Source: a virus (taxonomy: Duplodnaviria > Caudoviricetes). From it: 55,283 bases of DNA. The position numbers were made by a program, and so were the translations under genes. Below, one piece after another: positions 1 to 37,094 of this stretch; the first letter of the stretch is position 1, and the number at the start of each line of letters is the position of its first letter. The notes under the pieces are model-generated. The model saw only the letters and a list, made by a program, of their open reading frames with translations, had not been told where the DNA came from and did not search any database. Location: positions 1-55,283 of IMG/VR virus record IMGVR_UViG_3300025640_000003. The stretch is one strand, 5' to 3'.

Positions 1-74
1 GCCTATCGTATGGGGCTGGAAGATGCGGCTACTGTCATGGACCACCGCGCATATGGTTGCAGAATTACTGTAGG
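1..74. repeat. 74-bp direct repeat of the contig end (circular assembly overlap)
   Basis: 1-74 is identical to 55210-55283, and an ORF continues in frame across the junction. Confidence 0.95.
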
Positions 75-180
75 GATGGACCCACAAGGGCAGTGTGAGG
101 GTGGGGCAGAGGACATCCGCGCCATCCTCACACCCACAGACCTTGTGGAACGGGCAATGAAGGAGATGGACAATGAATGA
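1..180 (+). CDS. 3' part of a hypothetical protein spanning the circular junction (starts at 55096, 97 aa)
   Basis: Frame from ATG 55096 continues through the repeat to TGA 178-180. Confidence 0.6.
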   Translation, partial: AYRMGLEDAATVMDHRAYGCRITVGMDPQGQCEGGAEDIRAILTPTDLVERAMKEMDNE

Positions 181-505
181 ATATACACCTGCCAGTTGGG
201 TAGTAATTAAGATCGACGGAGATGACCCCCATTATCGTGTACTTGGTGGTTGGTCAGGCGGTTATTTGACAGGAGACTCTTGGAGACTTAATAGCGGTAT
301 CGTCAAGGCAGAATTTGATGGAGACTATTGGTGTTTCTATGGGTCTAGTGGTAGTTGCTACAAGTGTTACGTTGATAACTATGGTCTTAAAATGTCTAAT
401 GCACCTGTATACAACCAACTAAAAGAGAAATACGGTGATGACATAACACTATTAAAAGACCAAGAGTGGGTGCAAAAAGACTGGGACTGGTTGATAGATG
501 AATGA
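173..505 (+). CDS. Hypothetical phage protein
   Basis: 110-aa ORF with AAGGAG RBS; contains VLGGWSGGYLTGDSWRLNSGI, a motif typical of small phage proteins. Confidence 0.8.
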   Translation: MNEYTPASWVVIKIDGDDPHYRVLGGWSGGYLTGDSWRLNSGIVKAEFDGDYWCFYGSSGSCYKCYVDNYGLKMSNAPVYNQLKEKYGDDITLLKDQEWVQKDWDWLIDE

Positions 506-659
506 AGAACTAAAACAAAAGCTTAGAGACATGAGTACATTAAGTGACTCTAGGACACCTAAGGATGCACTTAAGTATATTGAGTCTCTAGAAAGTGAAC
601 TATTTGAACTTAAGAACGCACCGATACAATTTTTACTAGATCATGGAAAGGGAGAATGA
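498..659 (+). CDS. Small hypothetical protein (53 aa, not in ORF track)
   Basis: ATG 498 to TGA 657-659; fills the gap and overlaps both neighbours. Confidence 0.55.
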   Translation: MNEELKQKLRDMSTLSDSRTPKDALKYIESLESELFELKNAPIQFLLDHGKGE

Positions 660-1063
660 TGACTGACTACACAACAACAAAAAACGTGGCTGAGAGTGTC
701 ACAAAAAACTATTCGGAATTGTTGAAAGGATTGAGCGTGGACACGGAAGCAGCTTGGAAGAAACTGTTTGAAGCCTCACTGGAGGAGACAGACAATGTAC
801 GCAGTAGACTGATTAGCCTTGTGGATTCCCTTGTAAAAACTGTGCTTGGAGAAGACTATGATGAGTATGTAACCTCTCTTGTCGTCAAAGAGCTTAAATG
901 GTCTATAGAAAACTTTGAAGAGGGTAATGACCGTTGGGAGACACCTGATAACAGTGCTCATGATCTTGCCTCAATGTACCGTGCACTTGCATACCACATG
1001 GTTCCATCAGAATACAAAGAGTATGTTCAACAGCGTCGAGAGGTGAAGAACAATGAAGTTTAG
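656..1063 (+). CDS. Hypothetical protein
   Basis: 135-aa ORF with GGGAG RBS. Confidence 0.75.
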   Translation: MMTDYTTTKNVAESVTKNYSELLKGLSVDTEAAWKKLFEASLEETDNVRSRLISLVDSLVKTVLGEDYDEYVTSLVVKELKWSIENFEEGNDRWETPDNSAHDLASMYRALAYHMVPSEYKEYVQQRREVKNNEV

Positions 1064-1217: not shown

Positions 1218-2778
1218 TAACCCACACCAACCTTGTCCATATGAAAGCTGTGGCTCAAGTGACGCATTTAACTGGGATGATGGTGGCTTCGGTTTCTGTC
1301 ATGCCTGTAGTCAGTCCTATCCCCAGAAGGGTATGGGTAACACATTTGATTGGGTAGAAGATACATACCCTCTGCCAAAAAGGATAAACCCTATGACTGT
1401 AGAAATTGGAGGCTTTACGTATGACGGTATCCGTTCCATCTCACCTGACGTGTGTAAACTTTACGGTATTCAACTCCAAAAAGATACTGATGGTAATCCT
1501 GTACGGTATGCCTTTAAGTACCCTAGCAACGTAAAGTATCGTGGGTACGACGAAAAGAAGTTCTGGTCTAAGGACAAAGGTTCCTTGCTTGATCTGTTTG
1601 GTCCAGAGTTTAATGCAGGCACAAGTAAGCGTATCTACCTGACTGAGGGGGAGTTTGATGCAGCCTCTTTGTATGAAGTTCTTGGTCAGTCTTACCCCGT
1701 TAAGGGTATCCCCGGTGCAGGTATCGGTGAGAAGTTTATTAAGGCTAACCACGCATACCTAAACTCTTTCAGTGAGATCGTATACGCTGGGGAGTTAGAT
1801 CAAGCAGGTAAGGGTGCTGCTGAGAAGCTCTTCGAGGTATTCCCAGAGAAGTTCTACTTTGTACCTATGACCAAACACAAGGACGCTAACGAGTTCCTTA
1901 TGGCTGGTGATAGTGCAGACCTTAAGTGGGCAGCAGTTAAACCTCAGCGATACTCACCGGATAACTTCTTTTGTTCTGACCAAGACGTAGAGGATGCTAT
2001 CCGTAAGGAGAACCCATACGAGTATGTACCCACAGGTCTTTCAGGTTGGGATGACAAACTACGGGGTCTGGTTAAAGGTGGCATTACTTTCATTAAAGCT
2101 AAGCGTGGACTAGGTAAGACAGAGCTTATTCGTTTCTTTGAGACAGCCATGCTTAAGGATGAGACATGTCGTATTGCTTTACTTCACGCAGAGGAGATGA
2201 AGTCTACAACCTATCGCGCTATGGCATCTTACGAGTTGGGTATTAACGTACGTACAAAGGATGATGCTAAGGCTAATGGTATCCCTGAGGATAAAGTTGT
2301 GGAGGCAGCTAAGAGGGCTACAAAGGGGGAGCGTACAATTATCTTTGAGATGCGTTCTCACGATGATCCTATGAAAATCCTTGAGTATATCCGACTAGCG
2401 GCCACTGTGTATGGTGCAGACTTTATCTTTATCGACCACATCCAACGACTTGCTTATCTCTCTCAGAGTGGTGTTGATGGTGCTACATCTATGCTCACTG
2501 CCCTAGGTTCACGTTCAGCCCAGCTTGCAAAAGAGTTGAACATTGGTGTCGTATTTATCAGTCAAACAAATGACGACGGGCGGACAAAATATGCATCAGC
2601 ACTTGAGGAGGAGGCAATCATCTGTGTTAAGCTTGAACGTGATCTTGAGTCAGAGGATGAGGTAGAGCAAAACACTACAGAGTTCGTGATCGACAAGAAC
2701 CGTCCATTCTCAAAGCTTGGCAGTGCTGGTACCGTCTACTACGATCCTGATACAACTCTATTGACGGAGTCTACCTAA
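1210..2778 (+). CDS. T7 gp4-like DNA primase/helicase
   Basis: Zn finger CPYESC...CHAC, TOPRIM LTEGEFDA, Walker A AKRGLGKT, Walker B IFIDH, KNRP; GAGGAG RBS before ATG 1210. Confidence 0.93.
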   Translation: MSSNPHQPCPYESCGSSDAFNWDDGGFGFCHACSQSYPQKGMGNTFDWVEDTYPLPKRINPMTVEIGGFTYDGIRSISPDVCKLYGIQLQKDTDGNPVRYAFKYPSNVKYRGYDEKKFWSKDKGSLLDLFGPEFNAGTSKRIYLTEGEFDAASLYEVLGQSYPVKGIPGAGIGEKFIKANHAYLNSFSEIVYAGELDQAGKGAAEKLFEVFPEKFYFVPMTKHKDANEFLMAGDSADLKWAAVKPQRYSPDNFFCSDQDVEDAIRKENPYEYVPTGLSGWDDKLRGLVKGGITFIKAKRGLGKTELIRFFETAMLKDETCRIALLHAEEMKSTTYRAMASYELGINVRTKDDAKANGIPEDKVVEAAKRATKGERTIIFEMRSHDDPMKILEYIRLAATVYGADFIFIDHIQRLAYLSQSGVDGATSMLTALGSRSAQLAKELNIGVVFISQTNDDGRTKYASALEEEAIICVKLERDLESEDEVEQNTTEFVIDKNRPFSKLGSAGTVYYDPDTTLLTEST

Positions 2779-2813
2779 TGACTTAACATTAACTTTTTAC
2801 AAGAGGAGATACA

Positions 2814-4700
2814 ATGACAGCCTACATCTTTGACCTTGAGTCTGACGGTCTTCTCGACACTGTCACAAAGATACACTGTGTGTCTTATACTGAACCTAAC
2901 GGCAAAGAGGTAAAGACTGCTACTACCAAAGAGGGCATAAAAGAGTTTCTTGATAAAGCCACAACACTCATAGGCCACAATATTATTCGCTATGATGTCG
3001 TAGTCCTTGAGAAGATACTTGGGGTTAAGATCAAGCACAAGCTCTATGACACATTACCAATGTCTTGGGTATTCAACCCCAGTAGAGCTAAGCATGGCCT
3101 TGATTCATTCTTTCCTGACTATGGTATTGAGAAACCTAAGATCACGGACTGGGAGAACCTTACCCTACCTGAGTATGTCAACCGCTGTGAAGAAGATGTT
3201 AAGATTAACCAAGCTTTGTGGTTAGACCTTACTAAACGTGCTAACTTTATCTACAAAGACAAGAAAGAGTTGGACAGGTTCTTACAGTATCTTACTTTCA
3301 AGATGAAGTGTGCAGCAAAACAAGAGGAGCTAAAATGGAAAATCGATAAAGACCTTGTCACAAAGTGTGTTGAGACCCTACGACAACAACAAGAAGAGAA
3401 GATCGAAGAGCTAACCAACGTCATGCCTTTACAAAAAGTTTACGCTAAGAGAGGTAAACCTAAGGTTATGGAGAAGAAGGATGGCTCTATGTCTGCTAAC
3501 GCAGAGAAGTGGTTTGAGTTGTTAGAGTCAGAAGGGTTGCCAAAGGACCACAAAGGCCCTGTGAGTGTCCTTAAAGAGCTTAAGCAGGCTAACCCCAAGT
3601 CCTCTGATCAGGTTAAAGAGTGGTTGTTTAGTCTGGGTTGGGTTCCTTGTACCTTTGACTACAAAAAGAATGAGGATGGAACTGAGCGAACTGTACCTCA
3701 GGTACGTAAAGATGGGGAACTCACTAGATCAGTCAAGCTTCTTATCGATAAAGACCCTGCGGTAGAAGTTCTTGATGGTCTTACTGTTATTCAACACAGG
3801 TTGTCTATCTTTGAGGGTTTGCTTGATGCAGAGGTTGATGGCTATGTTAAGGCAGAGGTTGGGGGTCTTACAAACACCTTTAGGTTCAAACACAATAAGC
3901 CTTTGGTTAATCTCCCCGGTGTTGACAAGCCTTGGGGTAAAGAGATTAGAGGTTCCTTGATAGCCCCTGAGGGTTACGTATTGTGTGGCTCAGACATGGT
4001 CTCTCTTGAGTCAACAACTAAGCGTCACTTTATCTACCCCTATGACCCAGAGTATGTTGCAGAGATGTCACAAGAAGGTTTTGACGAGCACCTAGACCTA
4101 GCGGTTAAAGCGGGACATCTTAGCTCAGAGGACTACGACTTTTATACAAGATCAGATGAGGAGACAGTGAATGATGTAGCTAGGTTTAAGGGTATCAAGA
4201 AGGTACGTAAAAAGTTCAAGCCAGTAAATTACAGCGCAGTGTATGGTGTCAGGGAGCTTAAACTTTCTAGAACCACTGGCATGGGTAAAGCAGAGGCAAG
4301 AGATATGTTAGCTGCATACTGGAGACGCAACTGGGCGGTCAACAAGTTTGCTACTGATAGAGAGGCCGGGGTACGTACAATCGCAGGTCAGATGTGGATA
4401 CAAAACCCAGTGAGTAAGTTCTGGCACCCGCTGAGGTTCAAGAAGGATATCTTTTCTACACTGAATCAAGGTACTGGTGTGTTCTGTTTTGACACTTGGA
4501 TTGCCTTCTATTCTTCTCGTCGTCCGGATATCCTAGGGCAGTTTCATGACGAGACAATTAACCCCGTCAAGATCGGAAAGGAGGAAGATCATGAGGCTAC
4601 ACTTCGTTGGGCTATCGCCATGACAAACAAGAAACTCAAGCTTAACATTGACTTAGACATCGATGTACAATTTGGGTCTAACTATGCACAAATCCATTGA
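2814..4700 (+). CDS. polA: Family A DNA polymerase with 3'-5' exonuclease
   Basis: ExoI FDLESDG, ExoII GHNIIRYD, motif A GSDMVSLE, motif B RKKFKPVNYSAVYG, motif C QFHDE. Confidence 0.95.
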   Translation: MTAYIFDLESDGLLDTVTKIHCVSYTEPNGKEVKTATTKEGIKEFLDKATTLIGHNIIRYDVVVLEKILGVKIKHKLYDTLPMSWVFNPSRAKHGLDSFFPDYGIEKPKITDWENLTLPEYVNRCEEDVKINQALWLDLTKRANFIYKDKKELDRFLQYLTFKMKCAAKQEELKWKIDKDLVTKCVETLRQQQEEKIEELTNVMPLQKVYAKRGKPKVMEKKDGSMSANAEKWFELLESEGLPKDHKGPVSVLKELKQANPKSSDQVKEWLFSLGWVPCTFDYKKNEDGTERTVPQVRKDGELTRSVKLLIDKDPAVEVLDGLTVIQHRLSIFEGLLDAEVDGYVKAEVGGLTNTFRFKHNKPLVNLPGVDKPWGKEIRGSLIAPEGYVLCGSDMVSLESTTKRHFIYPYDPEYVAEMSQEGFDEHLDLAVKAGHLSSEDYDFYTRSDEETVNDVARFKGIKKVRKKFKPVNYSAVYGVRELKLSRTTGMGKAEARDMLAAYWRRNWAVNKFATDREAGVRTIAGQMWIQNPVSKFWHPLRFKKDIFSTLNQGTGVFCFDTWIAFYSSRRPDILGQFHDETINPVKIGKEEDHEATLRWAIAMTNKKLKLNIDLDIDVQFGSNYAQIH

Positions 4701-25470: not shown

Positions 25471-26544
25471 TCAGGCAAGGTTATATTTAGCTGTTACGAG
25501 AGCTTCTGGACGCAGAATCTTACGACCGTACAGGTGCATACCACGTACAATGTCAGCAAAGGAGTCTGGGTCACGGTAAGTCTCGGTCTTGTTGATTTGC
25601 TCAGCGGTTGCAACAGCAGAATCATGACCACCAACAATAACACCGAAGTTAGCGTTCTGGTTAGCCGTACCAGTTGTAGCAGCGCCAGTACCAACTTGTG
25701 GAGTGTTGTTGGATACGTATACCCGGAAACCATTCCAGTTGTTGATGACCAGACCATTACGAAGGGCACCGGAATCACCGTAGTCAGAGTTCAAGAAGCG
25801 CGAGTCTTCATCCTGCAAAACTTCCATCATGACTGGGTCAATGACAATCCAGCGACCTGCTTTATCAACGTTCTGTTGGTCCAAAAGACGGCCCATACGG
25901 TTGATCAGCATGACTGGAGAGACATAAGCTGTTGGAAGAGCAGTAGCACCGGGCAAACGTGCAGCAACAGGGATCGAGTGGTTCCCAGCAGAAGCAGTTG
26001 TGATGTTACCGAAGTCACCCTTTTTAAGCTTCATGGAACCCAAGAGTTCGTCAGAGCCAGCGGTGTCTACAGCTTTAGTGCCATTGACTTGGTCGTTAAC
26101 TGTGTCAGCGTTTGCATGAAGAGCAGTCTGCTTGTAGCCCGACAGGTAACCCAGAACTTCTTGGTCGTACTGATCAGCCAGACGGTAGGCAGCACGGTTA
26201 GTTGCGAGGTCCATGAAGTTTACATGCGAGTGCTTCTCTTCGATGTCATCTACCTTAAATGCAAAGTAGTTAGACTTGTCAATAACCAGCGAGAAATCTT
26301 CATCGTCGAGGTCTTGAGCGTTAACCTGAGTACCACGAGCATAAGGGCTTACTGTGATTTCTGGCTCTTTGATGATCTTTACAGAGTCACCTTGGGCAGA
26401 GATTTCACCGAAGTAATCAGAGTTAGTAATGTCACCAGCAATAGTGGACTTACGGAATGCGAGTTGAACTTTCTTGGAATAAATTACCGAAGAGAAGTTA
26501 CCGTTTGGCAGGTTGTTGTGGCCTGCAGCGGATTGGAAAGCCAT
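25471..26544 (-). CDS. Major capsid protein
   Basis: 357 aa; NSDYFGEI..QGDSVKI, FAFKVDDIE, GRWIVIDP, DIVRGMHLYGRKILRPE; strong AGGAGG RBS and biased codons. Confidence 0.92.
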   Translation of the reverse strand: MAFQSAAGHNNLPNGNFSSVIYSKKVQLAFRKSTIAGDITNSDYFGEISAQGDSVKIIKEPEITVSPYARGTQVNAQDLDDEDFSLVIDKSNYFAFKVDDIEEKHSHVNFMDLATNRAAYRLADQYDQEVLGYLSGYKQTALHANADTVNDQVNGTKAVDTAGSDELLGSMKLKKGDFGNITTASAGNHSIPVAARLPGATALPTAYVSPVMLINRMGRLLDQQNVDKAGRWIVIDPVMMEVLQDEDSRFLNSDYGDSGALRNGLVINNWNGFRVYVSNNTPQVGTGAATTGTANQNANFGVIVGGHDSAVATAEQINKTETYRDPDSFADIVRGMHLYGRKILRPEALVTAKYNLA

Positions 26545-26760
26545 GAGAAATCCTCCTGTGATATGTTTTGGCTTTATAATGAGCTAAACATGGTTCAAAG
26601 AGGCTAAACGTCTTTAGGGTGCAAAAGTATCTCAGGTCGGCCAACCTTTGAAACCTTGGGCCTATGCGCTCAGGTAGTTCTTATCTTGTTTAAGCTTTGG
26701 GGGGTTTTAGTCTTTAACCCCGAGGTAGTACTATAATAGCAGGCTCGGGGTTATTGACGT

Positions 26761-30867: not shown

Positions 30868-31054
30868 TAACTTTATCCCTTAGTCTTTTTAGTGCGTGAA
30901 GAGCATGAAGCTCCCCTTGGGTTCTGTAGATGTCATAAGGTTCTACAGTCTGCTCTAGGCGTTTATGCTTATCTTTAATCCGTTCGTCCAGTTCCCCTAG
31001 GAATGCTCCCCAAAGCTCTGGGTTATTCACGAACATCTTTAGCTTGCTACTCAC
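30860..31054 (-). CDS. Small conserved protein after the portal
   Basis: 64 aa, IYRTQGEL.AL..L..LRD. Confidence 0.75.
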   Translation of the reverse strand: MSSKLKMFVNNPELWGAFLGELDERIKDKHKRLEQTVEPYDIYRTQGELHALHALKRLRDKVNG

Positions 31055-33156
31055 TGCATACCTCCGGTGTTACCAGAGAAGCCTTGTTCACCCGGTGTAG
31101 GAGCCGTACCAGTGCCTATCTGACCCCCTCCGCTACCTTGGGTATCCTGAACCTGTACACCCGCTGGAGCACCCCCTGTAGCGCCTGCCTGAGGTACTGC
31201 TGGAGCACCTTCTTGAGGCATCTCAGGTTGAGGGTTTGCAGCTTGGAACTGTTTAAGGATTTCAGCCTGAACTGCAGCCTTCTGCATAGAGTTGGTTACT
31301 TTGTCTGGGTCAAGGTCCATACTCTTGGCAATCTCACGGATGATATAATCCATCTTAGCAAAAGGAGCGAGGACTGGGTTTTGTACCACACCAAGGAATT
31401 GCATAAGCCGCTGACTGCGAACTTCATTAGCCATCAAGCTTTCTGTGCCCTCAGCCTTAACCTCCAAGTCACCTTTAATTTCTTCGTCGTAGTCAAACTG
31501 CATATTGAAAGCAAAGAAGGCACGACCCAAAGGAGCTAGGAGATAGTCGTCAATGTTTTTAACTACAGTACGAATAGAGCCGTTAGCAGCGGACATCAGC
31601 ATAGAGATACCGGAAGCTGTACGACCTACACCAGAGACACCTGTTTGACCGTGAGCAAAGGAGGGGAACCCTGTGGATTCATCTGCAAGCACTCTGGCTT
31701 TGTCAAACATTTGCATATTTTCGTTAGACACGTTAGGGAACTTAGTCCCGAAGATAGCCTGACCCGGAGCACCACCTTGACGTCTAAAGACTTTGCCGGG
31801 GTAAACAGAAAGGTCTTGACCCGGAGTAAGGTTAGTTTCATCTACTTCCAAGATCAAGTTACCTGACAAAGCAGCGTTATCAACAGCCATACGCATAAAG
31901 CCATTCATAAGCAGTTGAGTGTCAGCCATGTTTTCTGCAATACCGATACCAAACATAGAGTAAGGATTAACTTCGTAAGGTACAACGTAGTAAGGAACAA
32001 TCTTAGGTGTAAAAGGGTTCATAACCAAGCGAAGTACTTGTCCGTTACAAATCCAGATGTTTACAGACAGCTCATCTTCTTTACTGAGGTTTTTAGGGAT
32101 ATCAATGTCATGGTCTTCAAGAACACTCTTATCTACGTTACCCCAAAACTCAAGAACCTCAAACCTTTCAGTGGCCACCTCTTGGTTGTCGTCTTCCATG
32201 ACCTGCTCCCACCACTCTTTCTGGAAATCTTCTCCCATAGAGACAGCAGTATCGATAGCATTATCACGAAAGAAAGGCCTACGCTTAAGCGCTCGAAGTT
32301 GAGACTTAGACATCTTATGGCGTTCAATTACGTATTCTGCTTCTTCCATATTATTGGCGTCTGGATCAGGGTAGAAGTTCCAAAGAGAGACAGAAGTAAT
32401 TTGAGGTATAGTCTTAACCTTAGGTGCGTAGTCACCCTCATCATTCCAGTTAGGGTATTCCTTGTCTACAGCAAAAGGACCTTTCATGATTCCTGTACCA
32501 AACAATGCACATTCAAAGGCTGCTGTACGTAGGTGTTTTTTACCCTTAGACTCTTCAATCTGATCGTGGATTTTCTTTTCCATCTTCTTGGCAGAGATCA
32601 TAGCAGGCTCAAAAGTAACCTGAGTTGGACCTGTACCGGGACCTGCTTTAAGGTCTTTCTCTACGGGCTGTAGAGCTACTTTAAGTCCACCAAGACGCTC
32701 TTTAAGGTCTTGCATTGTCTCCCCCGGAAGGAGAGTGGGCATTGCACCTTCAGCTTCTTTAACCTTTGGGTTAGTCTCTAGGTGTACACTTTCTTCCACC
32801 CCATCTGGCAGGGTAGTAGGGTTTACACTAAGGGGGAACTTGTTGTTCCCAAAGAGAACCTCAATGATTTGACCATAAGCAGCAAGAACTTTTGTCTTAG
32901 TTACTTTTACAAAAACTTGAGACTTTTCAGTGTCTGTAAACTGCACATCAGGGCCATAGATACCACGATAGTTACGGTAAGACTCTAGCCAACGACGCTC
33001 TTCTGTCTCCCTAGCTGTCTCTGCCTTATTAAACCGCTCTTTTACATAAGCTTCAATACGGCCAACCTTGGGGTCAACCAATTGCTCTTCTTTGGCATCT
33101 TCAACAGCTTCCATCTCGAAACCGTCTTCACCATTGAAATCTTCTTCTTCCATCAA
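31051..33156 (-). CDS. Portal protein
   Basis: 701 aa after the terminase; FGTGIMKG, NFYPDP, PYEVNPYSMFGIG, RTASGISML. Confidence 0.9.
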   Translation of the reverse strand: MMEEEDFNGEDGFEMEAVEDAKEEQLVDPKVGRIEAYVKERFNKAETARETEERRWLESYRNYRGIYGPDVQFTDTEKSQVFVKVTKTKVLAAYGQIIEVLFGNNKFPLSVNPTTLPDGVEESVHLETNPKVKEAEGAMPTLLPGETMQDLKERLGGLKVALQPVEKDLKAGPGTGPTQVTFEPAMISAKKMEKKIHDQIEESKGKKHLRTAAFECALFGTGIMKGPFAVDKEYPNWNDEGDYAPKVKTIPQITSVSLWNFYPDPDANNMEEAEYVIERHKMSKSQLRALKRRPFFRDNAIDTAVSMGEDFQKEWWEQVMEDDNQEVATERFEVLEFWGNVDKSVLEDHDIDIPKNLSKEDELSVNIWICNGQVLRLVMNPFTPKIVPYYVVPYEVNPYSMFGIGIAENMADTQLLMNGFMRMAVDNAALSGNLILEVDETNLTPGQDLSVYPGKVFRRQGGAPGQAIFGTKFPNVSNENMQMFDKARVLADESTGFPSFAHGQTGVSGVGRTASGISMLMSAANGSIRTVVKNIDDYLLAPLGRAFFAFNMQFDYDEEIKGDLEVKAEGTESLMANEVRSQRLMQFLGVVQNPVLAPFAKMDYIIREIAKSMDLDPDKVTNSMQKAAVQAEILKQFQAANPQPEMPQEGAPAVPQAGATGGAPAGVQVQDTQGSGGGQIGTGTAPTPGEQGFSGNTGGMQ

Positions 33157-35739
33157 TTAGTATCCCATAATTTTGTCAGCGGGCTGAAACTTACTATTTT
33201 GTCCTGTAGGGTCGTAGTCAAAAAGATTACTCTTAGGACGACTCATTAGGCCATATCTAAGGGCGTCATAAAGGTGATCTTCTGATTTTGTGTCTACGTC
33301 TTCAGGGTTGTTTTTATCGAGAGGTAGGGCAGGTAGTTGAGAGATAAGGTTACGACAAGTATTAAAGATCACCATCCTAGGTTCTTCTGTGTACTCATCT
33401 ACCTGAAGTCTCCTGTGTACTTCGTTCTTACCAGCAACACGAGAGCCTCTAGAGCGATCCGCAGGTCTCCAACGACAACCACGCATGATCATCTGTTCTG
33501 CCAGTGAAGGTCCTGTATCACCTCGATTGTGCCACAGAGAAGAGTCAAGAACACCGTAGCGCATTTTTTCCCCTGACTCTACTTCAAGGATCATGTCAGC
33601 TAAGTCTACTGCCGTAACCCTGTGAGTATACATCTCCCTGTATACAACCAATTGTTCTGTATGGGGTACAACAGCAAACCAAAGCACACCAGAATGAGAA
33701 CCGTAACCGTAGTCAGCAGCTCTAAACTTTGTCCAGCTAGAGGGGATGTCAAAAGGTTCTACTGTATGTATTGCAGAACTAAACTCAGAAAAGGCAGCAC
33801 CCTCAGATACGCTCCAGTCACCTTCAAGCAGTTGCCTACGTTGGTGTTCTGGGAGAGAAAGAAGGTTTGCCTCATACATCCCGTCATCAGAAAGGTGCGG
33901 GTTATCAAAGAGGGTAGCAGGAATAAACCTACGCTTAAAGAGTGGCTCACCTGCACGACTATGTCCTTTAGGCCAGCAGATAGTTTCCCCTGAGTCAATA
34001 TCGGTAGCCCAGAAAGATTCATTATAAGGTGCAGGGTCTACGAAAGTTTTTTTAACCCACGAGTGCCCACTACCGCCGGGGTTAGATGTAGCTCTTTGAT
34101 AAAGGTCTAGACCAGAACCTTTAGCAGTACGTAGACGAGACCTCATATAGTTCCAAGCAAAAGGTGTAGGCCATTGAGTCAGTTCGTCAAAACCAATCCA
34201 ACAGTTCTTATTGACAAGCCCAGACTCTGTGATATAATTATTAGATAAGTTTACAGTTAAATCATACACACTAGAAAGGGGTTCAGACAATGGCTCAACA
34301 CGAACAATGCATAATTCCAAAGGAACTTTTAATTCGCGCTGCTCTTCAGTATAGGGGTGGGTATACTTCTCAACGAGGTAACGGTTACATTCGGGAGTAC
34401 AACCCATTTCATCCAAACGGGGATCGTAGGGGCCTTGTACTTCAGCATCGACTTGTGATGGAGAGACATCTTGATCGGATACTGGACTCGAAAGAAGTGG
34501 TTCATCACATTGACAACTGCAAGAGTAATAACAACCTTGAGAACCTTCAACTTTTTGCATCCCAATCTGAACATTTGAAACATCACCACAAGACTGATGG
34601 GAACACAAAGAGGTATGACCCTCATTTTGTAGAAAAAGTCCGTCAAGCTGCAGAGGACCCAGAGGTCTCTTTAAAGTCTCTGTATGCAAGCCCTCAGACT
34701 GTCCTTGATGTTTGCAAGCTGCACGACATTGAGTGGAAGCATGGCCTTCACTTGACTGAAGAGGAGGTACGAAACGCACTGCAGGGTAGAACAACCCGAG
34801 AGGCTGCTGAGATTCTTGGATGTCATCCTCAGACACTCTACAACCGTTTTGACCATCTTCTTGAGAAAAGAAAGGCTCCGGGTTTTCTTGATTCTCAGAT
34901 TGAAGCTGTTTATAAGAAAGCCACTGAAGAGGGTATCTGTGAAACTGCGAGATACTTTGAGACAAATCGGATAACTGTTGGTAAGGCTTTGAAGAAAGCA
35001 AACCTATGGGATGACTATCAGGCTGTATCTGCTCAGATAAAAGGTGGCCGTCAGAGGAAAAAACAGAGACCTTAACACACTTCTTTTTTAGTTTTTCAGA
35101 TTTCCATAAGATTTGTTGAGGGCCTTCAAGTGTCTGTACAGACTCCCCCACTTGGAGGTCTTCAATCTTTTTTAGGTTGTTGTCACCAACTCGTACTTTA
35201 GTACCTTCAGCTACACAAAAAGCCTGACCTTGGTAACGAGAAACATCATCGTCCCTATCTAGGTAAGATAACCAGAGAGTTGCACCAGAAGGAGCCACCC
35301 AAGTTTTGTCTCTTTCAAGAAATTTAATACCCGGAATAGCTTTAGGGTAAAGTTGTTTGCTTACTGAGATAAGCTCTCTAAGTTCTTCTGTAGACCTGCG
35401 AACAAGCAACATTTTAGCTAGAGGATTATTAAAGTAACGCACTGGGTCAGCCAACATTGCGTAGCTTTTACCACCGCCAGCTGCTCCGCCATAGAGGACT
35501 TCTTGCTCACTTGAACTTAGAAAGTCTGTTTGAGGTCCGGGGTTAGGTTGGAAAATAACTTCTTGAGCTTTCTCCACACTAATTGGCACCGGGAGTGACT
35601 CAGCTGGAGTCTTTAGGCTCTCTGACTTTTCTACCACCGAGTCTGGCTTCTTCGAGCTTTTTGGCTTTTTCGAGGGCTTCTTTGTACCTTTCGGCAAGGA
35701 ACCTTTGATTTGAAGCTTCTGTCTGACGTCGTTCTTCAA
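33157..35739 (-). CDS. terL: Terminase large subunit, intein-containing (exact start uncertain)
   Basis: Walker A YGGAAGGGKS, Walker B WIGFDE, ATSNPGG, nuclease ADYG and EDHLYDALRY. Confidence 0.95.
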   Translation of the reverse strand: MKNDVRQKLQIKGSLPKGTKKPSKKPKSSKKPDSVVEKSESLKTPAESLPVPISVEKAQEVIFQPNPGPQTDFLSSSEQEVLYGGAAGGGKSYAMLADPVRYFNNPLAKMLLVRRSTEELRELISVSKQLYPKAIPGIKFLERDKTWVAPSGATLWLSYLDRDDDVSRYQGQAFCVAEGTKVRVGDNNLKKIEDLQVGESVQTLEGPQQILWKSEKLKKKCVKVSVFSSDGHLLSEQIQPDSHPIGLLSSKPYQQLSDLSQSISQFHRYPLQWLSYKQLQSENQENPEPFFSQEDGQNGCRVSEDDIQESQQPLGLFYPAVRFVPPLQSSEGHASTQCRAACKHQGQSEGLHTETLKRPLGPLQLDGLFLQNEGHTSLCSHQSCGDVSNVQIGMQKVEGSQGCYYSCSCQCDEPLLSSPVSDQDVSPSQVDAEVQGPYDPRLDEMGCTPECNRYLVEKYTHPYTEEQRELKVPLELCIVRVEPLSEPLSSVYDLTVNLSNNYITESGLVNKNCWIGFDELTQWPTPFAWNYMRSRLRTAKGSGLDLYQRATSNPGGSGHSWVKKTFVDPAPYNESFWATDIDSGETICWPKGHSRAGEPLFKRRFIPATLFDNPHLSDDGMYEANLLSLPEHQRRQLLEGDWSVSEGAAFSEFSSAIHTVEPFDIPSSWTKFRAADYGYGSHSGVLWFAVVPHTEQLVVYREMYTHRVTAVDLADMILEVESGEKMRYGVLDSSLWHNRGDTGPSLAEQMIMRGCRWRPADRSRGSRVAGKNEVHRRLQVDEYTEEPRMVIFNTCRNLISQLPALPLDKNNPEDVDTKSEDHLYDALRYGLMSRPKSNLFDYDPTGQNSKFQPADKIMGY
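34211..34240 (+). promoter_or_regulatory. Promoter for the nested HNH gene
   Basis: TTGACA 34211-34216, 16-nt spacer ending TGA, TATAAT 34233-34238. Confidence 0.8.
34290..35075 (+). CDS. HNH endonuclease with C-terminal HTH-like repeats, antisense and wholly inside the intein
   Basis: GYIREYNPFHP...QHRLVMERHLDR.L...EVVHHIDNCKSNNNLENLQL....EH...H; EAAEILGCHPQTLY; RBS GAAAGGGG 8 nt before the ATG. Confidence 0.9.
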   Translation: MAQHEQCIIPKELLIRAALQYRGGYTSQRGNGYIREYNPFHPNGDRRGLVLQHRLVMERHLDRILDSKEVVHHIDNCKSNNNLENLQLFASQSEHLKHHHKTDGNTKRYDPHFVEKVRQAAEDPEVSLKSLYASPQTVLDVCKLHDIEWKHGLHLTEEEVRNALQGRTTREAAEILGCHPQTLYNRFDHLLEKRKAPGFLDSQIEAVYKKATEEGICETARYFETNRITVGKALKKANLWDDYQAVSAQIKGGRQRKKQRP

Positions 35740-36010
35740 GCTTAACCCTATTTCTCAATCCCACGTAAGAGATACTTCTACCACTTTCATGACTTAGCCA
35801 ATCTGCCACTGCCCTAAGACTGTACTTCTTTAAGTGAGTTTTAGCTTGTTCAAGTAAGTCTAGCTCTTCTTTAATAGGTAAAAGTATATCAGGGTCATCA
35901 GGGTCTTGTTTATAACCAAAAGGGATTACCCTACCTACACGTACTACAGGGTGGTAAATGTAGTCCCCATCTAGGTTCTCAGGCTTAGGCAGTTTCCAGT
36001 CTTTTTTCAT
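35600..36010 (-). CDS. Conserved hypothetical DNA-binding protein upstream of terL
   Basis: IPFGY...SLRAVADWLS..SGRSISYVGL; ATG 36010. Confidence 0.75.
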   Translation of the reverse strand: MKKDWKLPKPENLDGDYIYHPVVRVGRVIPFGYKQDPDDPDILLPIKEELDLLEQAKTHLKKYSLRAVADWLSHESGRSISYVGLRNRVKLEERRQTEASNQRFLAERYKEALEKAKKLEEARLGGRKVREPKDSS

Positions 36011-36016
36011 ACACCT

Positions 36017-36045
36017 TTTATACCTTAAAACAAAACTTGTGTCAA
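36017..36045 (-). promoter_or_regulatory. Promoter TTGACA-N17-TATAAA (transcript possibly leaderless)
   Basis: The -10 box ends 6 nt before ATG 36010. Confidence 0.55.
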
Positions 36046-36404
36046 GAGTCCTGAGACTTTTTTTCTGGTAAAATAAACAAAGGGCTTTGAGTGCTAACTT
36101 CAACTTTGTCTGTAGCCTTAAAACCAGCACGATCAAGGAAGTCTTTAGCTACTGCCATCTTCTCTTTGTTGCCGAGGTCTGTAGGGTTATCCATAATGTC
36201 CATCATAGCCCAAACAGCTTTAGGTCCATTCTCAGAGATAAAGTTACGAGTACGGATACTAATTTCTTCACGCAGAGGCTCAACAACCTGAGAAGTAGCT
36301 ACAGTGTCTGCGTAACCTGCCATCTTCTTTGCTTGGACAAAGCTACCTTTAGCAGGCCCAAACAGTGCCTCAAGAAACATAGTCTGTTTTTCTGTAAGTG
36401 CCAT
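36042..36404 (-). CDS. Putative terminase small subunit
   Basis: LTEKQTMFL...A..MAGY, AKDFLDRAGF, LFILP. Confidence 0.65.
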   Translation of the reverse strand: MALTEKQTMFLEALFGPAKGSFVQAKKMAGYADTVATSQVVEPLREEISIRTRNFISENGPKAVWAMMDIMDNPTDLGNKEKMAVAKDFLDRAGFKATDKVEVSTQSPLFILPEKKSQDS

Positions 36405-36661
36405 TACCTATATTTCCCTGTCTTCTTAGCAATCTTTTTTGGTTGAGAGGAAAACTGCTTACCTGCTTTAGTGTCTTTACGTTTTTTAGCAGAGGTGGCT
36501 TTATACTCAGCTTTTGTCAGTGCCTCTCGTGCTTTCTTAGGGAGATACCTTTCCCCTGTAGCTTTAGAGCCTTGAGTAGAAGGTTTACCTGACTTAGTTC
36601 CCCACTGTTCTTTGTGCCATTTGTCGAGAGACTTTTGAGGTGCTTTCTTAGCCATTACCAT
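36404..36661 (-). CDS. Small basic protein (DUF5872-like)
   Basis: QKSLDKW.KEQWGTKSGKPS...GERYLP. Confidence 0.7.
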   Translation of the reverse strand: MVMAKKAPQKSLDKWHKEQWGTKSGKPSTQGSKATGERYLPKKAREALTKAEYKATSAKKRKDTKAGKQFSSQPKKIAKKTGKYR

Positions 36662-37094
36662 AATACCCTTTAGTTTTTAAATACTTTTTAGCTCTGCCCA
36701 AAACTTTTGGGTCGTCTTTCAGTAAACCTAAAGCTCTGTTACAAGTCTTACAGAGGATACCTCTAACCTCACCTGTGGAGTGGTTATGATCAATTGCAGA
36801 GTCTTCTGCCTTAATAGGGTCTTCACAAATAGGGCAGGTACCATCTTGATCTTCGTACAAAGACCAAAAGTTTTCAACAGAAATGTTATGTCGGTTACAA
36901 CGTTTTTTAAGTGTCCAAGGGTCTTTAGCCCTATACTGACGAACTTTATCTGGATTGTTCTTGACCCAAGACTTATGGTCTTTTTTGCGACAATTATTAC
37001 ACCAACTATTTAAGAGGTGTTTTTGAGAGCCTCCCCGTGACCTATAACAACTTAAGTCTCTGACCTCTTTACACTTTGTGCAGGTTTTAGTCAC
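36648..37094 (-). CDS. Endonuclease VII-family (putative homing) endonuclease
   Basis: QDGTCPIC, IDHNHSTGEVRGILCKTCNRALG; N-terminal Zn ribbon. Confidence 0.88.
   Translation of the reverse strand: MTKTCTKCKEVRDLSCYRSRGGSQKHLLNSWCNNCRKKDHKSWVKNNPDKVRQYRAKDPWTLKKRCNRHNISVENFWSLYEDQDGTCPICEDPIKAEDSAIDHNHSTGEVRGILCKTCNRALGLLKDDPKVLGRAKKYLKTKGYYGNG

Follow-up and report, generated by a model that had tools for sequence, protein, structure and literature searches.

The terminase large subunit gene (terL) of an uncultured marine phage (Duplodnaviria; Caudoviricetes; IMG/VR record IMGVR_UViG_3300025640_000003) is interrupted by a 1,014-bp insert that we read as a class-1 intein with an HNH endonuclease cassette nested in it on the opposite strand. 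We refer to the whole analysed stretch, positions 1–55,283 of that record, as the window. We assign this reading a probability of about 0.8; splicing, transcription and cleavage are the parts of it that we infer. The best explanation of the insert is a composite mobile element that carries a predicted promoter, a predicted ribosome-binding site and an HNH gene with helix-turn-helix (HTH) modules. A bidirectionally coded selfish element had been proposed in an initial annotation made from the letters alone, and comparative data leave it as the best-supported explanation, with the same three steps predicted. The evidence consists of family-wide avoidance of stop codons, substitutions specific to each frame, conserved splicing residues, a conserved promoter and Shine–Dalgarno (SD) motif for the HNH gene, and a sporadic distribution on the extein tree; we regard the predicted mechanism set out below as well supported.

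A terminase intein with an HNH gene on the other strand

The terL gene is a single open reading frame (ORF) at 33157–35739 on the minus strand, in which N-extein, intein and C-extein follow one another over 860 aa. The ORF was assigned to the PHROG terminase large subunit (4.1e-47), and direct reading of the sequence gave a Walker A motif (GGAAGGGKS) and a Walker B motif (WIGFDE). The Roseobacter CRP phages and Puniceispirillum phage HMO-2011 are the cultured phages closest to it; their intein-less TerL aligns to the window gene as two pieces, skipping 34204–35217. The N-extein (35218–35739, minus strand; TerL residues 1–174, ending in YQGQAF) matches the intein-less protein as a piece of its own. 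The intein itself (34204–35217, minus strand) spans 338 aa from C175 to N512 of TerL, just before Walker B, with flanks YQGQAF| and |CWIGFDE. It begins with Cys1 (35215–35217), ends with a penultimate Lys and Asn338 (34204–34206), and has a Hint fold in an AlphaFold2 (AF2) model. The C-extein (33157–34203, minus strand) runs from CWIGFDE through the stop, and its first codon (34201–34203) encodes the +1 Cys, the predicted nucleophile for transesterification.

The HNH gene lies at 34290–35075 on the plus strand and encodes 261 aa with matches to Pfam HNH_3, to HTH families and to PHROG HNH families. The first codon positions of the two frames are opposed, so that the third position of each frame faces the second of the other. 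ORF listing and alignments bore out every coordinate that the initial annotation had given for TerL, the intein, the HNH gene and the block B His codon (35011–35013). Contigs from three marine metagenome runs, which may be the source samples, cover 33900–35500 with zero differences, and pieces from a fourth run span both intein junctions. Misassembly, which the initial annotation had named as a risk, was ruled out by these contigs of four runs.

From a TerL scan of IMG/VR we kept the best 80 of 595 relatives. Among these 80 loci, 78 had no intein, two (L001 and L002) had the full unit and none had a mini-intein. L001 and L002 are near-identical contigs with an 877-aa TerL, in which an insert of 338 aa occupies the same site and is matched on the other strand by an HNH ORF of 271 aa. 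The intein DNA of the window and L001 is 63.5% identical without an insertion or deletion, and their HNH proteins are 62% identical, gapless, over 258 residues.

The nested arrangement is usual in a large family in uncultured phages

A search with the HNH protein retrieved 46 relatives, about 38 of them full length. An alignment of the HNH relatives was then scanned against IMG/VR (best 80 of 136 kept) and a metagenome collection (best 80 of 127), which gave 160 loci. In 138 of the 160 the antisense frame was stop-free over the entire HNH ORF, always in one phase and inside long ORFs. The host ORFs of the nested HNH genes align as TerL, with Walker A, intein and Walker B; the host gene is always TerL, and Pfam found Terminase_6N plus intein domains in representative host ORFs. 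We omitted the near-duplicates L146 and L152 by hand from the host-ORF alignment, skipped 7 of 111 host-ORF rows ending at contig ends during intein extraction, and omitted L214 (140 aa) and one exact duplicate from the intein alignment. All 104 extracted inteins share one antisense phase, and the 102 unique nested inteins have no TerL-frame stop in 26,487 HNH codons. The 22 relatives that are not nested carry 133 stops over 4,190 codons of that phase (3.2%); nearly all of them match the HNH core only and are ordinary free-standing HNH genes.

A search seeded with the intein (block F pattern) returned 71 loci, 67 of which have an antisense HNH, and an exhaustive HNH profile search returned 184 cluster representatives at E ≤ 1e-30. 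Other inteins with reverse-strand HNH genes thus exist, as do intein-less terL alleles, both of which the initial annotation had pointed to as worth seeking. The family is spread over marine, freshwater and soil viromes, in very divergent TerLs (~30% identity). Records of phage isolates contained no full-length HNH relative (92 records matched, with coverage of at most 33% among the 30 listed). A pattern scan of IMG/VR with the single HNH protein returned nothing; the alignment-based scans did find relatives.

Inteins of the family sit in one of three adjacent registers ahead of Walker B, and four loci have the intein in the P-loop. The three registers fall within one 10-residue stretch (...F|C-WIGFDE, ...QF|C-GFDE and ...LL|C-FDE), and across them the +1 residue is C, S or T about equally often. 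The pattern suggests site sliding or repeated retargeting. The P-loop inteins (L213, L227, L240 and L225) sit in Walker A (GRG|C...HN|SGKT), have a penultimate His and carry an antisense HNH-core ORF in the same phase; because of that ORF, the antisense layout is present at two ATPase motifs. They pass the Pfam Intein_splicing cut-off of 35.8 bits (for instance L213, 44.6; L240, 48.8; L227, 59.4).

Two further arrangements were seen among the relatives. The TerL ORFs of L195 (1,784 aa), L089 (1,459 aa) and L207 (1,194 aa) contain several inteins, with in-frame LAGLIDADG inteins in addition to an antisense-HNH intein. On L197, a 1,392-nt contig, a full-length HNH relative is antisense to the N-terminal part of TerL (42–716, plus strand; 542–970, minus strand). 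There the TerL part reads YQGAAYQ and then no Hint N-lobe, with one stop in the usual phase; the locus may be a broken or an intein-less insertion of the nuclease gene.

Both frames are open far beyond chance

Not one stop interrupts the TerL frame over the length of the HNH gene. In the other 49 ORFs of the window the corresponding antisense phase is the stop-richest one, at 8.3% per codon, and its longest open run is 98 codons versus 266 here. When the window HNH was resampled synonymously with phage codon usage, the TerL frame acquired 11.9 stops on average and at least 4, and none of 5,000 resamples reached zero. The mean agrees with the dozen or so that the initial annotation had expected by chance, and its view that selection keeps TerL translatable gains from the absence of stop-free resamples together with the 102 stop-free inteins. 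Shuffling residue order gave 15.7 stops on average and shuffling codon order gave 17.4; the overall range expected from resampling is 12–22 stops. For the HNH of L001 the TerL frame likewise has no stop, versus a mean of 13.7 in synonymous resamples (0 of 5,000 reach zero). The stop-free overlap is highly non-random, far beyond chance. An open frame by chance was ruled out by the antisense-phase statistics, the resampling and the family-wide absence of stops.

The ends are selected as intein and the middle as HNH

The window and L001 differ at 83 first, 61 second and 112 third positions of the 258 HNH codons. The excess at position 3 gives the HNH frame a normal coding signature, and the intein frame changes mostly at its second position. 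We extended the comparison to 239 equal-length pairs among 36 sequences (70–97% identical), with the intein cut into thirteenths. The ratio of third- to second-position changes in the intein frame was 6.5 and 2.4 in the first two segments, 0.67 in the third, 0.14–0.47 in the fourth to eleventh, and 2.1 and 6.9 in the last two. By this profile, selection acts on both ends as intein and on the middle as HNH. Segments three and twelve vary little at all three positions, which fits a stretch where both frames are of importance.

Column conservation has the same outline: the N- and C-termini of the HNH, its less conserved parts, face conserved Hint blocks, and its conserved core and HTH region faces the unconserved middle of the intein. 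In the overlap between the window and L001, identity is 42.8% in the intein frame and 44.6% and 54.1% in the two non-coding antisense frames. As the intein frame is no more conserved than non-coding frames, selection on it in the middle of the overlap is only for the absence of stops.

At 35011–35022 the two codes meet on residues that can be named. The block B His-Pro codons of the intein are there the reverse complement of the HNH C-terminal Trp-Asp codons (residues 239–242), so that the same bases fix residues of both proteins; the HNH Trp is not conserved across the family.

Splicing residues are conserved around a disordered middle

Cys1 is present in all 107 non-gap rows of the intein alignment and the block B His in all 108; C1, G32 and H69 are invariant in the 102 unique inteins. 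The block B His is intein residue 69, and its codon (35011–35013) does lie within the HNH ORF, as the initial annotation had noticed. The Thr of the block B TxxH motif is Pro in the window (PxxH) and in 79 rows. The terminal residue is Asn in 103 of 108 rows and Gln in 4 (N338|C in the window), and 107 of 108 have S, T or C as the +1 extein residue. Lys takes the penultimate place in the window and in 70 rows, with His in just 4 of 108.

Pfam gave weak Hint matches in the intein frame at residues 1–41 and 303–338 alone. In an AF2 model built from the 102 sequences, the mean pLDDT (predicted local distance difference test) score per 10-residue block is 88–98 over residues 1–110 and 96–98 over residues 281–338, and a confident strand covers residues 143–149. 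The Hint N-lobe thus comprises residues 1–115 (34873–35217, minus strand), His69 included, and the Hint C-lobe residues 281–338 (34204–34377, minus strand), with block F (DLTV..NYI) and block G (GLVNKN). A Foldseek comparison of the model with the Protein Data Bank (PDB) returned inteins as all of the top 10 matches (PI-SceI, gp41-1 and Prp8 among them; E 2e-4 to 8e-4).

Between the lobes, the read-through loop (34378–34770, minus strand; intein residues ~150–280) is the antisense translation of the HNH core. Block means of pLDDT are 69 at residues 151–160, 39–50 at 161–270 and 65 at 271–280, and residues 185–251 score below 50. The intein-frame middle matched nothing in Pfam or PHROG, in line with the earlier remark that no endonuclease motif could be recognised there. 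That remark had also called the middle rich in Q, S, C and P: over residues 116–280 this is right for Q (11.5% versus 4.5%), S (11.5% versus 5.8%) and C (6.7% versus 0.6%), and P is barely enriched (7.3% versus 6.1%). A real domain in the intein-frame middle was ruled out by the lack of a Pfam or PHROG match, the low pLDDT and the non-coding level of identity.

The antisense ORF encodes a predicted HNH homing endonuclease

The complete opposite-strand HNH ORF reported by the initial annotation is a match to Pfam HNH_3 (E 1.9e-7; 31 bits, above the cut-off of 24.8) and to PHROG HNH families (best 6.7e-18). The HTH-like repeats noted there recur as matches to several HTH families near residues 160–190 and as three helical modules in an AF2 model of the protein (mean pLDDT 86), in which they follow a beta-beta-alpha core. 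The core covers residues ~49–100 (34434–34589) and the HTH-like modules residues ~111–250 (34620–35039). Residues H73, N81, N85 and H95 are each kept in 101 of the 102 antisense ORFs and are invariant in the alignment of HNH relatives; by analogy, we take them to be the catalytic His...Asn...His.

I-HmuI is an intron-encoded phage HNH homing endonuclease that nicks DNA and is read from the sense strand. It is the best PDB match of our model in a fold comparison (1u3e; E 0.2, probability 0.85, TM 0.24/0.34), a weak match to a protein of like modular layout, an HNH core followed by helical DNA-binding modules. A PDB sequence search with the HNH profile found no match. In-frame fused forms of the HNH, sought among longer proteins, were not found, which is weak evidence, and the top 150 HNH cluster representatives are all shorter than 425 aa. 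An HNH with three HTH modules has the layout of a homing endonuclease, and site-specific cleavage would be its expected activity.

Candidate expression signals include a promoter motif within the splicing blocks

Upstream of the HNH gene is a candidate sigma-70 promoter (34211–34238, plus strand) that matches consensus at 12 of 12 positions. TTGACA (34211–34216) and TATAAT (34233–34238) are 16 nt apart, with TG at 34230–34231 forming an extended -10, and the motif match lies 79 nt before the ATG. The -35 is antisense to the block G codons L334-V335-N336, and the -10 to the block F codons N327-Y328-I329. L001 has a 12/12 candidate at the identical offset despite only 63.5% nucleotide identity, and L162 has a 9/12 site at that position. 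Matches of at least 10/12 occurred in 36 of 100 family upstream windows versus 0.4% of 2,000 control windows.

We redrew the codons of the intein tail with the amino acids fixed, omitting inteins with fewer than 20 free tail codons (77 of 102 remain). Among the resamples 20% reached 10/12, versus 49% observed, so that the signal comes partly from the protein motifs and partly from codon choice. In 18 of the 77 inteins at most 5% of resamples equalled the observed score. An SD-like AAGGGG (34276–34281, plus strand) lies 8 nt before the HNH ATG; an SD-like word is upstream of 32 of 102 HNH relatives, versus 9.7% of control windows.

Distribution and decay of the element

The intein-less site reads YQGQAF-N-WIGFDE in 76 of the 78 intein-less relatives, and intein-bearing alleles have Cys in place of the Asn; the element thus supplies its own +1 nucleophile. 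In a quick maximum-likelihood tree of the exteins, the window is sister to the intein-less L003–L005 (SH-aLRT 100) within a clade of 23 whose other 22 members have no intein (SH-aLRT 95). Of this type of TerL, the remaining alleles with an intein (L082, L161 and L162) fall outside the 60 intein-less ones among which that of the window is nested. Given this nesting, one gain in the window lineage is simpler than five or more losses.

Reduced forms occur in the same family and at the same site. Mini-inteins without an antisense HNH match are found in L285, L286, L295 (184 aa) and L304 (147 aa). L284 has a 185-aa intein (2501–3055) and an antisense 94-aa ORF (2676–2960, minus strand) that keeps the HTH half, the HNH core being deleted; the TerL frame remains open. 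L284 is an apparent decay intermediate, and together the mini-inteins and this decayed copy look like stages of the usual homing cycle.

A model for the element and its alternatives

In the model that we favour, the late terL message (minus strand) would be translated straight through the element, which is possible because all 338 codons are stop-free. The Hint domain would fold from the N-lobe (residues 1 to ~115, plus the strand at 143–149) and the C-lobe (~280–338), and the ~130 intervening residues, a meaningless antisense reading of the HNH core, would be looped out as a disordered tether. Cys1, His69, Asn338 and Cys+1 would then excise the intein and join the exteins into a 522-aa TerL with an intact Walker B. 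On the other strand, host RNA polymerase would start at the sigma-70 promoter antisense in blocks F and G and transcribe the plus strand, and the product would be a 261-aa, I-HmuI-like HNH endonuclease that carries three HTH modules. During mixed infections the enzyme would nick or cut an intein-less terL near YQGQAF-N-WIGFDE, and repair from the intein-bearing allele would copy the entire unit, Asn being replaced by Cys at +1 in the process.

Several observations weigh against this model. Two textbook intein residues are absent, the penultimate His and the Thr of block B TxxH (PxxH here), and the window intein scores 13.8–14.7 bits where the Pfam Hint and intein cut-offs are 27–36. A penultimate His is common, not universal, in inteins, and inteins without it can splice. 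The Cys-rich, disordered loop of 130 residues could hinder folding. The promoter is a consensus match only, which about 20% of synonymous tail resamples also attain at 10/12; such a site is absent from L161, and the score falls below 10/12 in 64 of 100 members. The fold match of the HNH model to I-HmuI is not significant (E 0.2). The extein tree is a quick version with long branches flagged. Divergence between the window and L001 is similar for the HNH (62% at the amino acid level) and the exteins (~63%), so that transfer does not follow from these two copies by themselves. Related sequences enter both the pair counts and the promoter counts, which are therefore not counts of independent events.

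A more ambitious version of the model, which we put forward tentatively and at slightly less than even odds, is that the antisense layout is an evolved, stable design rather than a transient accident, that it prevails across a large family of TerL inteins, and that the best conserved C-terminal splicing motifs of the intein, blocks F (N/H-Y-I) and G (L-V/I-N), double as -10 and -35. If so, the 1-kb unit would bring its own expression, driven by host polymerase, wherever it lands, and nuclease synthesis (early, from host sigma-70) would be uncoupled from late TerL synthesis. The cost would be a purged, stop-free, disordered read-through loop in the intein, and convergent transcription could also delay TerL expression.

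The best-surviving alternative is nested parasitism: the HNH would be an independent free-standing gene that uses the intein as a safe harbour and targets HNH-less mini-intein alleles, the two parts not moving as a single unit. Such mini-inteins do exist in the same family and at the same site (L285, L286, L295 and L304), the cassette with its promoter lies wholly inside the intein, and the text of a recent preprint proposes that layouts of this kind arise when a free-standing endonuclease invades an intein (10.1101/2025.01.02.630785). We nevertheless consider this unlikely. The mini-inteins are equally explained as decay products with L284 as the intermediate, and both parts are present in 67 of 71 intein-seeded loci. 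None of the best 80 TerL loci is a mini-intein allele (78 are intein-less and 2 have the full unit), and the position of the window allele among intein-less alleles fits gain of the whole unit.

Still less probable is that the HNH is a packaging accessory, as in HK97-like cos phages, that does not home and is kept in terL for co-inheritance. The host gene is always TerL, and HNH genes beside terminase genes are common, some being needed for cos cleavage according to the text of PMC3592412. Against this, 78 of the best 80 close relatives package their DNA without the HNH, which occurs solely within inteins at ATPase motifs and has the HNH_3 plus three-HTH layout of a homing endonuclease, and decayed HNH copies persist in otherwise intact TerL.

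We regard it as very improbable that the plus-strand ORF is silent, whether as a relic or as a product of chance, and that TerL translation alone matters: although its promoter is a motif match only, changes in the HNH frame concentrate at its own third codon position, the protein is 62% identical without a gap over 258 residues at 63.5% nucleotide identity, its catalytic residues are kept in 101 of 102 ORFs, 184 cluster representatives match at E ≤ 1e-30, and the promoter and SD motifs are conserved. Removal at the RNA level by a group I or II intron (group I introns that carry an HNH gene are frequent in phage genes), misassembly or a dead terL are the least credible of all, given an in-frame, stop-free insert bounded by Hint motifs with a confident Hint fold, junctions supported by contigs of four runs, and conserved exteins. 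A search of 33800–35600 returned no Rfam intron model at E ≤ 1, its sole match being sbrA by chance (E 0.6); a group I/II intron was rejected on this result.

Relation to known inteins and nested nucleases

The initial annotation knew of no precedent, which does not hold: antisense intein endonucleases of the LAGLIDADG and VSR-like types have been described (10.1101/2025.01.02.630785). In the text of that preprint, Gosselin, Arsenault and Gogarten report actinobacteriophage inteins, several of them in TerL, with antisense LAGLIDADG or VSR-like endonucleases. It also reports an endonuclease VII type that lies out of frame, mentions HNH as an in-frame domain only, and cites earlier antisense LAGLIDADG cases in Ssp DnaX and a Chloroflexus SpoVR-like protein (Gorbalenya 1998, Gogarten 2002). 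It expects quick decay because nothing protects the antisense ORF.

As the preprint text describes them, the actinophage inteins resemble the element in the window in that the intein is continuous and stop-free, sits in TerL in some cases, and has the opposite-strand ORF between the splicing blocks; the in-frame middle is without a recognisable fold, and invasion is inferred as the origin, with continued transfer. The nuclease differs, being HNH_3 with three HTH modules here rather than LAGLIDADG or VSR-like, and so do the hosts, which are uncultured marine, freshwater and soil phages. The family here is also large (102 unique inteins) with a single fixed phase, and its HNH overlaps block B and the pre-F region; the preprint text describes no promoter embedded in F and G. 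That text names no antisense HNH, and its Supplemental Table 1 or figures may list further nuclease types.

Other known systems share parts of the arrangement. In the HNH-associated inteins of 1997, as cited in the preprint and in the text of PMC5050341, the HNH and the intein form one polypeptide; in the present family the HNH is a protein of its own, encoded on the opposite strand. In the fractured genes of Dassa et al. 2009 (PMC2677866), the endonuclease-insertion point of an intein in phage genes, one terminase included, is likewise taken up by an endonuclease gene that has expression signals of its own, and the text proposes split inteins around a free-standing nuclease gene as an intermediate in intein evolution. 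The host genes described there are two ORFs and the nucleases GIY-YIG or Vsr-like, whereas terL in the window is one ORF, kept whole by the removal of all stops from the antisense phase. As described in the text of Arsenault et al. 2025 (PMC11855218), an HNH in ShiLan overlaps the frame of a phage methylase that is kept stop-free, as here, but on the same strand in another frame and with no splicing domain, where ours is antisense and flanked by Hint. Insertion at the P-loop and at Walker B is shared with mycobacteriophage TerL inteins (Kelley et al. 2016, PMC5050341); that text describes no antisense nuclease with them, and the penultimate Lys and the three registers before Walker B set the present family apart.

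In the literature within reach, which left out supplements and most subscription journals, we found no antisense HNH intein, no account of this TerL family or its size and no promoter within splicing blocks. The kind of arrangement is already known but rare, and what is added is an HNH as the nuclease, a family of this size and age, its fixed phase, a clean pattern of selection on two frames and a candidate embedded promoter. Opposite-strand intein nucleases have hitherto been treated as very rare curiosities; here the arrangement persists in more than 100 distinct inteins.

The family allows two kinds of selection to be told apart in one stretch of DNA: one strand is selected for its amino acids and the other purely for avoidance of stops. 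It also offers a natural system for the limits of antisense overlap, as ~65–100 codons encode parts of two predicted folded domains in a phase that sets the wobble base of either frame against the second base of the other. It lends direct support to the gain of nucleases by inteins through invasion of free-standing genes, and, if splicing occurs as predicted, provides natural evidence for Hint splicing around a long unstructured insert. Should the promoter be real, regulatory signals would be written inside catalytic protein motifs. For annotation, gene callers will give TerL or the HNH and may dismiss the other as spurious.

Neighbouring genes

Directly downstream of terL lies the portal gene (31051–33156), and an endonuclease VII gene lies upstream. 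The latter (36648–37094, minus strand) is a free-standing member of its family (Pfam Endonuclease_7, 9.6e-23) about 900 nt upstream of terL and is a second nuclease of the packaging module; other ORFs intervene between terL (35739) and this gene (36648). A 357-aa ORF (25534–26607, plus strand) without a Pfam match lies within a long minus-strand structural block. The listed start of terL, a TTG at 35739, overlaps by 140 nt an upstream 178-aa ORF (35600–36136, minus strand), which has no Pfam match and may be the small terminase; the real terL start may be further downstream than 35739.

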